A stretch of 36,614 nt of DNA from Candidatus Woesearchaeota archaeon (GTDB taxonomy: Archaea; Nanobdellota; Nanobdellia; Woesearchaeales; SKGA01). Location: positions 30,914-67,527 of the forward strand of contig JBFXLI010000003.1 of NCBI GenBank assembly GCA_050187915.1, in the 5' to 3' direction. Positions 17,787-22,073 of the stretch are shown piece by piece (position 1 is the first letter of the stretch; every line of letters begins with the position of its first letter). The notes under the pieces were generated by a model. The model was not told the origin of the DNA. It saw nothing but the letters and a program-made list of their open reading frames with translations, and made no database searches. The translations under genes and the position numbers were made by a program.

Positions 17787-17813
17787 TTTGATTTTAGTTC
17801 TGAGGTGAATAAT

Positions 17814-18095
17814 ATGGCTAACGCAATTATAACATTTGAAATTATGCCTGAATCTCCAGATGTAAATATAGAAAGTTTAAAAGATAAACTTTTAGATATT
17901 GCAAAAACTGCTGGTGCTAAAGGTGAAATGCAAAGTAAAGTAGAACCTATTGCTTTTGGTTTAAAAAAATTAATCATATATGCAATGTATGAAGTTTCTG
18001 ATAACAAAGATTTTGATGCTATTTGTGATGAAATGGCAAAAATTGAAGGTATAGGAAACGCAAAAATTGCTAATATGGATTTAGCAATGGGTTAA
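17814..18095 (+). CDS. ef1b: Elongation factor aEF-1 beta
   Basis: IMPESPDV and EPIAFGLKKL motifs; GAGGTG SD 6 nt before ATG 17814. Confidence 0.95.
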   Translation: MANAIITFEIMPESPDVNIESLKDKLLDIAKTAGAKGEMQSKVEPIAFGLKKLIIYAMYEVSDNKDFDAICDEMAKIEGIGNAKIANMDLAMG

Positions 18096-18466: not shown

Positions 18467-19051
18467 TTATTTAAATTTTGAAAAAAATCCTGTTTTTTTA
18501 GGAGGTTGATTTATTGGAGGCATATCTGAATCCATTGGAGGAAAATCTAAAGACATATTTGATAAATTTTCATCACTTGGTTCATTTGAAACATTTTCAT
18601 TTGGATTTTTCATATTTTGTAAATCTTTTGGAGATTTAGTATTTTGCTCTTGATTATTTTGTTGTGTAATTGGTTGTGTATGTGTAGGAGCAGAATTCAT
18701 TACAGGTTGATTTTGTACTTTTTCAATTAAATCATTTAATAATTCTGTTTGTTTTTGAACTAATTGAGCAACACTTAAAATTCCTTTAGCTATTTCTTCA
18801 TTTTGTGAAGATATATTATCAAAACTTCCTCTAATTGAATTTGATTTAAATTCTTCAGCCATTTCTTGATTTGTAGTTGTAAAAATGTTATTCATATGAT
18901 TTATAGTTTCAGTTAATTTATGTACTGCATCTACTAAATCTGTACCTTCATAATGCTTACCTAAAGGATTCTTTTTTATCTCAGAAACTTCTTGCCTTAA
19001 TCTTTCTAATTCCTCGTGAGGAAGTATTTCGTATTCAGAACCTTCATCCAT
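18467..19051 (-). CDS. Hypothetical coiled-coil protein with disordered Pro/Gln/Asn-rich tail
   Basis: GAGGT SD; YEILPHEELERLRQEV N-terminus; C-terminal KKTGFFSKFK. Confidence 0.75.
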   Translation of the reverse strand: MDEGSEYEILPHEELERLRQEVSEIKKNPLGKHYEGTDLVDAVHKLTETINHMNNIFTTTNQEMAEEFKSNSIRGSFDNISSQNEEIAKGILSVAQLVQKQTELLNDLIEKVQNQPVMNSAPTHTQPITQQNNQEQNTKSPKDLQNMKNPNENVSNEPSDENLSNMSLDFPPMDSDMPPINQPPKKTGFFSKFK

Positions 19052-19220
19052 TATGTCTACCTCTTTTAAATGTCTTGTAATTATTTTAATTAAAAGAGTA
19101 TTTAAATATTACGCTTTAAAAGCAATAAAATTAAAAAATATAAAAAAATTATTAATTATTTAAAAGTTATTTAAAAGTAATTCAAAAAGATATTTAAACA
19201 AGATAAGATTTTCAATTTTT

Positions 19221-20825
19221 ATGACAAGCAACAAGCAAAACAATCAAAATTTTCTTCTTTCTGAAGGTTCTTCTCGAGATGTAGGCAGAACTGCTCAAAG
19301 AATGAATATTTTAGCAGCAAAACTTGTTGGTGAAACAGTAAGAACAACTTTAGGACCTCAAGGAATGGATAAAATGATTGTTAATGCTCTTGGTGAAGTT
19401 ACTATAACTAATGATGGAGCTACAATTCTTCGTGAAATGAATATTGAACATCCAACTGCAAAAATGATTGTTGAAATTGCAATAACTCAAGAAGAAGAAG
19501 TTGGTGATGGAACTACTACTGCAGTTGTTTTAGCTGGAGAATTATTAAAACAAGCTGAAAATTTATTAGAACAAAATATTCATCCAACAATTATTATTAA
19601 AGGATTTAGATTAGCTGCAAGAGAATCTGAGAAAATTCTTAATGAAATTGCTGAACATATAACTGATAAAGATAAACTTATTTTACATAAACTTGCAATG
19701 ACTTCTATGACTGGAAAAGTAGCAGAAGATGCAAAAGAACATTTGGCAAAAATTGTTGTTGGTGCAATTTCTCATTTAGAAGATTCAAATAAAATTGAAA
19801 ATATAAAAGTTGAGAAAAAAATTGGAAGTTCTGTTCACAATACTGAATTAATTGAAGGCATCGTTATAGATAAGGAAAAAATTCATCCGTCAATGCCCGG
19901 TGAGATAAACAATGCGAAAATCGCACTTATCAGTGGAGCTCTAGAAATACCTACTACTGAAACCGAGAGTAAAATATCTATAACGGATCCTTCAAAATTG
20001 CAAGAGTTTTTAGACATGGAAGAAAACATGTTGAAAAAACAAGTTGAAAAAATTATTTCTGTTGGTGCAAATGTTGTATTTTGTCAAAAAGGTGTGGATG
20101 ACGTTATTCAATATTTACTTGCAAAACAGGGAATTTATGCAACAAGAAGAGTGAAAAAATCTGACTTAGAAAAATTAAGTTCTGCTACTGGTGCTGTTGT
20201 TGTAAATAGTGTTAATGATTTACAAAAAGAACACATTGGTAGAAGTGGTTTGGTTGAAGAAGTTAAAGTTGGCGATGAAATGATGACTTTTGTTAGAAAT
20301 TGTAAAAATGCAAGAGCAGTTACAATTTTAGTTAGAGCTACAACTGAACATCTAGCTGATGAAATTAAAAGAGCTATTGATGATTCTTTAGGAAATGTGA
20401 GTTCTGCTTTAAGCAATAAATTAATTGTTGGTGGAGCAGGCGCTTCCGAAATTGAATTATCAAAACAACTTAAAAAATTCGCAGAAAGTTTAGATGGAAA
20501 AGAAAGACTTGCAGTTCTTAGTTACGCTGATGCTATGGAAATTATTCCAAGAACTTTGGCTGAAAATGCTGGACTTGATCCTGTTGATGTTATTTCTGAT
20601 TTAAATGCTGCTCATGACAAAGGAAACAAATGGGCAGGACTTAATGTTTTTAGTGGAAAACATTTAAATTCTTTAAAAGAAGGCATTGTTGAACCTTTGA
20701 AAGTTAAAACTCAAGCATTAACTAGTGCGTCTGAAGTTGCTGTTTTAATTTTAAGAATTGATGATATAATTGTTGCTGGAGCAGATAATTCTCCTGTTAG
20801 ACAAAATCCAAGCGATGAATTTTAA
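19221..20825 (+). CDS. ths: Thermosome (group II chaperonin) subunit
   Basis: [41 protein letters not shown] and ILRIDD motifs. Confidence 0.97.
19852..19995 (+). other. Structured RNA/DNA element embedded in the thermosome CDS
   Basis: 19852-19872 is complementary to 19975-19995 (11 WC + 1 GU, a 2x2 loop, then 7 WC), enclosing internal hairpins; codon use is locally atypical. Confidence 0.65.
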
Positions 20826-20847
20826 ATAATTTCAAATAATTTATTTC

Positions 20848-21264
20848 TTACTTCTTCAAATTTAAATTTTTCATCAATTTTTTTTTGAATTTAAATATTT
20901 TTTGTATTATTTTCTTTCCTTGTTGAAAATCAATTTTAGTTCCATAATAATTTATTCCATTTCTTTTTTTTCTTATTTCATCAAAAAAAACATAATCAAA
21001 ATCAATAATAATTTCTTTCAATAATGCTCCAATGCAAATATGTGAAATAACTTTATAGCATTTAAATAGACATATTGCTTCCAACAATTCTCTTAAAGAA
21101 TCATATGCTAAAGAAACAAAAACAGATATATTTCTATCAGTTATGATGGATTGTTTAACAACTTCTTCTTTTAAATCAGAAATTTCAATTAAAGAATTTA
21201 CTTTATCTTCATTAAAATTAATTTTAATTATTTGTTGTTTTTTGAAACATTCAGTTAAATCCAT
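20848..21264 (-). CDS. HEPN-like protein (pair 3)
   Basis: AYDSLRELLEA, SH.C and RKKRNGINYYG motifs; clearly related to 6676-7131. Confidence 0.75.
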   Translation of the reverse strand: MDLTECFKKQQIIKINFNEDKVNSLIEISDLKEEVVKQSIITDRNISVFVSLAYDSLRELLEAICLFKCYKVISHICIGALLKEIIIDFDYVFFDEIRKKRNGINYYGTKIDFQQGKKIIQKIFKFKKKLMKNLNLKK

Positions 21265-21778
21265 TTATTCCACCTTGAATATTAATACCATTCAAGATGT
21301 TGTTAATTAAATGTTTGTTAGGAATTTCGGAAATTTTCCGAATATTAAATATTTGTAATTCTTTATTTAAAATTTTTTCAAATTCTTTCAATTTAGGAAA
21401 TTCTTTAGTTTTTTCTGAAATTATTACTAAATCAATATCGCTTGTTTCTATGTCTTCTCCTTTAGAACATGAACCGAATAAAATTATTGTTGGATGCAAA
21501 TAAAATTTATTTATTTCATTAATTAAATTTGATATTTTTAATTTTCGTATGTTGTAATATATTTTAATATCTTTATATTCTTCTGAATTGAAATTTGCTT
21601 GATATAAATGATAAATTCGTTCTTTTTTATAAGACAAAATATTTTTTTCAACAAGTTCTTTTAATTCCTTGCTTGCTGTTGCTGGAGAAATTTTTAAAAT
21701 TCTAGCTATTTCTCTTACATTAAATTCTCTTCTTGGTTCTTCGAAGAAAAGTTTTAAAATGTTTAATTCTTTGAACAT
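21251..21778 (-). CDS. wHTH + minimal nucleotidyltransferase (pair 3)
   Basis: FFEEP.REFNVREIAR.LKISPATASK.L HTH and ILFGSCSKGED...SDIDLV motif. Confidence 0.88.
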   Translation of the reverse strand: MFKELNILKLFFEEPRREFNVREIARILKISPATASKELKELVEKNILSYKKERIYHLYQANFNSEEYKDIKIYYNIRKLKISNLINEINKFYLHPTIILFGSCSKGEDIETSDIDLVIISEKTKEFPKLKEFEKILNKELQIFNIRKISEIPNKHLINNILNGINIQGGINGFN

Positions 21779-21988: not shown

Positions 21989-22073
21989 TGGCGCCACGAC
22001 CCGGATTTGAACCGGGAATTCCAAAGGAACCAGCTCTCAAGGCTAGCGCAATACCGGGTTATGCGATCGTGGC
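21989..22073 (-). tRNA. tRNA-Ser(TGA), CCA encoded
   Basis: Acceptor GCCACGA/TCGTGGC, anticodon arm CTAGC-CTTGAGA-GCTGG, long variable arm TTCC-TTT-GGAA, T-arm CCCGG-TTCAAAT-CCGGG, discriminator G then CCA. Confidence 0.95.

Follow-up and report, generated by a model that had tools for sequence, protein, structure and literature searches.

A fold-back in the thermosome gene of a Woesearchaeota archaeon: complementarity supplied largely by the protein sequence, and a possible helix under selection within one genus

The thermosome gene of a Candidatus Woesearchaeota archaeon carries a fold-back that is a real sequence feature, and two thirds of the pairs in its closing stem are dictated by the protein sequence. 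We put about even chances on this fold-back being a by-product of protein motifs together with A/T-rich codon use, rather than a second code. This reading is carried by the complementarity built into the protein, by the genome-wide expectation for stems of this strength, by an interior that is not conserved, and by the restriction of the helix to three closely related species. The original prediction, which proposed selection for a second code at synonymous sites, survives in part: the stretch is more stable than shuffled controls, a patch of rare codons accompanies it, and its closing helix is kept in two relatives (G003 and G002), whereas the interior, the lack of covariation across 30 orthologues, and the synonymous divergence between the source genome (G000) and G003 speak against it.

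The window analyzed here is a stretch of 36,614 nucleotides from contig C3 of G000 (1.03 Mb, 26% GC, 40 contigs), and its features are collected in Table 1. The host gene is present in a single copy in this genome (one match). Its product qualifies as a predicted member of the thermosome, or group II chaperonin, family on the basis of profile matches to PF00118 (Cpn60_TCP1; 585.5 bits, cut-off 34.3, residues 38–519 of the 534-aa protein), NF041082 (724.4 bits, cut-off 450) and TIGR02339 (688.6 bits, cut-off 671.1). GC content is about 31% within the gene and drops to 10–18% in the intergenic flanks (19050–19250 and 20800–21000).

Table 1. Coordinates of the features in the window (position 1 is its first nucleotide)
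Feature	Coordinates	Strand	Remarks
Thermosome (group II chaperonin) gene	19221–20825	+	ORF, 534 aa
5' arm TTGAAGGCATCGTTATAGATA	19852–19872	+	encodes (I)EGIVID(K), start of apical-domain stretch
Enclosed 102-nt segment	19873–19974	+	MFE fold; G000-specific hairpins (GATAA..TGCGA-AAA-TCGCA..TTATC; CGGT/ACCG)
CGGT	19898–19901	+	pairs with ACCG
ACCG	19962–19965	+	pairs with CGGT
3' arm TATCTATAACGGATCCTTCAA	19975–19995	+	encodes (I)SITDPS(K)
Peak of the patch of GC-ending (rare) codons	19887–20033	+	codons 222–270; 18/49 codons vs about 10% elsewhere in the gene; permutation P 0.0005
96-aa ORF	17805–18095	+	EF-1 guanine-nucleotide-exchange domain
138-aa ORF	20848–21264	-	no Pfam match
175-aa ORF	21251–21778	-	helix-turn-helix and nucleotidyltransferase domain
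tRNA-Ser (anticodon TGA)	21989–22073	-	

A repeat search recovers the two arms as an inverted repeat of 21 nt each, 86% complementary and 102 nt apart, with the 5' arm beginning 631 nt after the start codon. Nineteen of the 21 positions pair, including one G-U (18/21 are Watson-Crick), and the stem is laid out as 7 bp, a 2x2 mismatch and 12 bp, with an arm energy of -21.8 (about -22 kcal/mol). Both arms were found in the sequence where the original prediction had placed them, as were the CGGT/ACCG closure and the two inner hairpins, all of which also appear in the MFE fold. The 144-nt stretch folds with an MFE of -37.4 kcal/mol, while 200 dinucleotide-shuffled versions average -22.4 ± 3.3 (z = -4.49, 0/200 as good), and in a 744-nt context the stem of G000 pairs with probabilities of 0.5–1.0, mostly 1.0. 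Folding energy was further compared with that of synonymous-codon shuffles, the check by which stability within the shuffled range was to count against the prediction. The stretch exceeds these controls, both when codons are shuffled gene-wide (z = -4.03, 0/1000 as stable) and when the shuffle is confined to the 49 codons of the region (z = -3.07, 5/1000 as stable).

The pairing register of the stem places codon position 3 opposite position 3 and position 1 opposite position 2, and the fixed codon positions are complementary between the arms for E/S, G/P, V/T, I/I and D/S. The first two codon positions of IEGIVIDK thus complement those of ISITDPSK, which supplies about 13.7 of the 21 pairs at no cost; with the protein held constant, synonymous shuffling leaves 13.7–14.5/21 arm pairs. 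All 19 pairs are reached in 2/1000 and 5/1000 synonymous shuffles, and at a frequency of 0.0028 when the arm codons are redrawn. In the alignment of 30 orthologues, which represent 25 genera, the stem columns pair in 62.6% of cells, compared to 29–43% when the partner is slid by 1–3 columns. Shuffling the partners among the sequences gives nearly the same value (61.2%; 43/500 as high), and the orthologue-wide pairing therefore derives from the make-up of the columns, not from covariation. No covariation was found across these 30 orthologues.

The expectation for stems of this kind was determined on 969 ORFs of at least 100 codons (884,490 nt, delimited by a simple longest-ORF heuristic), by scanning all pairs of 21-nt arms with a spacer of 3–150 nt and at least 19/21 pairs and clustering the results. 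The thermosome stem has the strongest arm energy in this set, ranking first among 216 clustered fold-backs in G000 ORFs. In ten genomes with synonymous codons permuted inside each ORF, which served as the null, the number of clusters was 194–235, compared to 216 in the real genome, and the number of stems as strong or stronger was 1, 5, 2, 0, 2, 2, 3, 2, 2 and 1 (mean 2.0). By chance alone, one or two stems of such strength would be expected in each genome, and over the 969 ORFs and ten shuffles the real genome was no richer in strong in-gene stems than the shuffled ones. The homologous stem of G003 (-21.7) is equalled or exceeded by 10 real G003 stems, and by 10–16 stems in five shuffles.

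The G003 ORF set (loci L111–L210) also contains one ORF with a perfect 21/21 inverted repeat (118-nt spacer, arm energy -34.6), as well as a GC-rich 18-mer that recurs in two strong fold-backs. The perfect repeat and the 18-mer may be ends of mobile elements or come from contaminating higher-GC contigs.

The reverse complementarity of the two conserved apical-domain motifs at their first and second codon positions is fortuitous on the by-product reading, and the seven facing third positions often pair in a genome where third positions are nearly all A or T. Chance predicts one 19/21 stem per genome. If the thermosome fold-back is a by-product, the helix would serve no purpose of its own, and its retention in G003 and G002 would be a 1–6% coincidence, aided by the AT-biased decay of C-G pairs.

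The main alternative, to which we give less than even chances while taking it seriously, is a clade-specific mRNA helix under selection that arose in the common ancestor of G000 and the G003/G002 lineage. Selection would have recruited the near-complementarity imposed by the protein into the stable, long-range 7 + 12 bp helix, and purifying selection on third positions would have kept it there. The closing helix alone would matter, not the interior, with 102 nt clamped where the coding stretch for the apical domain begins.

Conservation among relatives bears directly on this alternative. The thermosome gene was found in 41/41 related genomes, and 30 loci were used (4 from the genus and 26 from outside it); the family comprises 18 genomes and the genus four (G000–G003). 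Since the thermosome genes of G002 and G003 share 92% nucleotide identity, the genus offers three lineages. A metagenome scan covering the best 80 of 388 relatives yielded one contig (L031) at 82% identity, which is the same as G003 in the region. Contigs of three public runs compared at 80% left the region essentially uncovered, with matches only to conserved parts of other organisms' chaperonins. Among the public runs listed, a single DNA run, which may be the source sample, contains the stretch, and no RNA run does. The number of arm pairs is 19/21 in G000, 18/21 in both G003 and G002, and 17/21 in G001, with z values against each gene's own synonymous shuffles of -3.9, -3.2 (-3.19), -2.9 and -0.2 (-0.22), respectively. 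The 26 orthologues outside the genus form 7–14/21 pairs, and the six of them tested gave z values of +0.73 to -1.85. In the 744-nt context, the helix pair probability is about 1 in G003, as it mostly is in G000, and 0 in G001. The z values of G000, G003 and G002 and the pair probabilities of G000 and G003 favor a selected helix, while its loss in G001 and absence elsewhere weigh against one. The conservation in relatives anticipated by the original prediction accordingly extends to the closing helix in G003 and G002 and is missing in G001 and the 26 other orthologues. The multi-branched interior, put forward as part of the same element, proved specific to G000: the inner hairpins are not kept in G003, G002 or G001, as judged from the genus alignment and folds, and the TGCGA/TCGCA hairpin is lost in G003 and G001 because of amino-acid changes.

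What hints at selection is the retention of 18/21 pairs in G003 and G002, three of them compensated. Three third-position pairs differ between G000 and G003 in both arms while remaining paired (U-A>A-U, C-G>U-A and A-U>C-G), corresponding to the codon pairs ATT/TCA -> ATA/TCT, ATC/ACG -> ATT/ACA and ATA/TCT -> ATC/TCG. Among the seven third-position pairs of these two genomes, both sides changed in four, neither changed in three, and a change on one side only occurred in none (0). Synonymous sites are near saturation at this distance (codon identity 0.647, compared to 0.567 expected if saturated). In an ancestry-aware simulation based on the gene's codon-transition table, G003 keeps at least 18 pairs with a probability of 0.013, and by independent redraw with a probability of 0.005; the corresponding values for G001 are 0.26 and 0.19. 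Part of the compensation is to be expected from AT-biased mutation, because a C-G pair with two GC>AT transitions gives U-A. The genus covariation score was 0.193, compared to 0.056 (1/500 shuffles as high), and comprises only three lineages. A selected helix is further weakened by the fact that only two independent lineages carry it, one of them the discovery sequence, and by the lack of a genome-wide excess of stems over shuffles.

An empirical null was assembled from 969,842 nt of G003 in 100 stretches, and 924 G000 fold-backs with at least 18/21 pairs map ungapped onto G003 orthologues. At an arm identity of at most 0.82, 13/740 of the fold-backs in this class (at least 18/21 pairs) lose no more than one pair. 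With at least 19/21 pairs and the same limit on arm identity, 1/89 G000 stems keeps at least 18 pairs in G003, and this is the thermosome stem only. Like the two simulated probabilities, these counts support a selected helix. The closest-matched stratum, defined by the same register, an arm amino-acid identity of at least 0.85 and a nucleotide identity of at most 0.82, argues the other way, with 3/32 stems retained including that of the thermosome gene (2/31 others). Together, the chance of retention in G003 is about 0.01–0.06, with a single null down to 0.005.

The reduced synonymous divergence proposed in the original prediction is not seen between G000 and G003, where synonymous codons are identical at 21/41 sites in the region vs 258/390 outside. 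A weak reduction is present between G002 and G003, with 3/48 synonymous differences in the region vs 65/384 (0.169) gene-wide, and these differences are patchy; 28/368 windows are as low as or lower than the region, which tells against selection. The arms themselves show 0/16 synonymous differences between G002 and G003, as a selected helix would lead one to expect. The thermosome protein tree has the topology (G001,(G000,(G003,G002))), with a support of 85/80, a very short branch and a single gene as its source. Because G001 falls outside in this tree, a single origin of the stem and of the patch of GC-ending codons after the G001 split is possible, and one origin would suffice for a selected helix.

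The patch of GC-ending codons is a genuine feature that accompanies the stem. In line with the switch to rare codons reported in the original prediction, such codons make up 14/49 in the region vs 49/485 elsewhere in the gene (Fisher p 6e-4), and permutation gives P 0.001 for the excess in the region. The GC3 of the genome is 0.12, and the 18/49 of the peak is reached in 0.25% of 247,349 windows; only two ORFs in the genome have a patch so contrasted, by a criterion set at the thermosome gene's own peak. In G003, a peak of 18/49 lies 32 codons upstream (P 0.027), the peak of G002 (15/49) is not significant, and no such patch was found in the G001 thermosome gene. Raised GC3 near the stem in G000 and G003, with neither feature in G001, is consistent with a selected helix. 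The number of GC3 sites common to G000 and G003 in the patch is 7, compared to 5.9 expected, with no enrichment, and the location of the patch at different codons in the two genomes may point to a cause that is regional and not inherited. The GC3 sites are paired in the MFE fold at 10/14, compared to 20/34 A/T sites, with no clear excess.

For a selected helix, the most plausible action would be to slow the ribosome, together with the rare GC-ending codons, at the junction of the intermediate and apical domains, or to shield an abundant mRNA from nucleases. Under wobble decoding, rare NNC codons need not be slow, which tempers the idea of pausing at the NNC codons that are rare in G000. The fuller proposal, of a lineage-specific helix in the sole chaperonin mRNA that combines compensatory synonymous evolution with a rare-codon patch and may act on elongation or mRNA survival, is one that we hold tentatively and find slightly harder to accept than selection on the helix as such. 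Selection on secondary structure in coding sequences is the subject of surveys (e.g. PMC6544989, PMC4021280). The structures under selection and the thermosome stem have in common a helix at synonymous sites over conserved protein, a stability that beats synonymous shuffles, and compensated third-position changes in a relative. The thermosome stem differs from them in being confined to three species of one genus and in being no outlier genome-wide, and is in this respect a candidate only.

Coupled changes in the two arms might also be maintained at the level of DNA, an explanation that we consider improbable. The thermosome arms fit the imperfect inverted repeat of a quasipalindrome (18/21 Watson-Crick), in which template switching during replication would copy a change from one arm to the other, and the arms would stay complementary without any RNA function. 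Since third positions face third positions in the stem, corrections of this type would be mostly synonymous and hence tolerated. Such copying would account for the third-position changes, coupled in four pairs, absent from three and one-sided in none, and for the fact that two transversions, with no G-U stage in between, are required in two of the three compensated cases. Described quasipalindrome hotspots have short spacers, whereas 102 nt lie between the thermosome arms. Moreover, the central 2x2 mismatch is left uncorrected in both lineages, inverted repeats show no genome-wide excess vs shuffles, and the arms have decayed in G001. The mechanism itself is documented, as template-switch mutation at quasipalindromes has been described in E. 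coli (PMC7202029), which lends this explanation some weight. The hotspots resemble the thermosome stem in being imperfect inverted repeats with changes coupled in the arms; the stem differs in its long spacer and uncorrected mismatch, and its coupling is seen in differences between species.

The least probable explanations, each of them raised in the original prediction and in our view very unlikely, are a thermosensor, an embedded or antisense small RNA, a processing site, and a patch from a higher-GC donor that brought codons and stem together. A donor would fit with the GC3 patch being among the two most contrasted in the genome, and also with strain-level mosaic recombination in the thermosome gene. 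G003 and contig L031 differ at 22 synonymous sites in this gene, all of them confined to two blocks, and such a mosaic is typical of recombination between strains. The search for a donor came up empty among 29 orthologues, none of which is nearer to G000 in the patch than the genus members. The patch identity of the latter is 0.75–0.77, which is not raised vs the rest of the gene.

An embedded or antisense RNA gains some credit from the minus strand, which folds as well as the plus strand (MFE of the 144-nt stretch -42.5, z = -4.08). Against it, no known RNA family in Rfam overlaps the region: with Rfam 15 at the gathering score, the only match in the window is the tRNA (at 21992–22073) and 19852–19995 is without one, and at E <= 10 the nine weak matches in the window (E >= 2.8) all lie outside the region. 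A thermosensor is unlikely: the modelled helix persists at every temperature between 15 and 75 °C, with a probability of 0.76 or more, and is a long way from the start codon. Heat-shock RNA thermometers such as ROSE and fourU are located in the 5' UTR, where they cover the ribosome-binding site and open up over a few degrees. The thermosome stem likewise is an RNA helix in a heat-shock gene, but sits 631 nt into it and is predicted to be stable at all of these temperatures.

The ungapped protein alignment excludes an intron. For an archaeal bulge-helix-bulge intron, the enclosed 102 nt would be the excised segment; they encode conserved residues and are ungapped in 30 orthologues. The internal loop, moreover, is a 2x2 mismatch and not the motif of a 3-nt bulge, a 4-bp helix and a 3-nt bulge. 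A CIRCE-like operator was likewise rejected, given the position of the repeat inside the gene. CIRCE, to which HrcA binds, is a DNA operator with a short spacer that precedes the bacterial groE and dnaK operons; it has in common with the thermosome stem an inverted repeat tied to a chaperonin gene, whereas the latter is intragenic and archaeal and has a 102-nt spacer.

A literature search found no report of intragenic structure in thermosome mRNA. Should the helix be under selection, it would be a structural element inside the coding part of an archaeal chaperonin mRNA, the first of its kind, and an RNA helix built by selection from complementarity that the protein sequence supplies free. Should it be a by-product, it would call for caution in a more general sense: conserved peptide motifs that are mutually complementary in a shifted register can mimic selected stems, and A/T-rich genomes would then give impressive, partly 'covarying' stems that beat local shuffles.

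Several further features were observed in the window. The 138-aa and 175-aa ORFs overlap by 14 nt, the domain of the latter corresponding to PF01909/PF18765, and by analogy their layout resembles an MNT/HEPN-type pair. The tRNA-Ser gene is the sole match in the window by Rfam (gathering) or ARAGORN, and the product of the 96-aa ORF is aEF-1beta-like.
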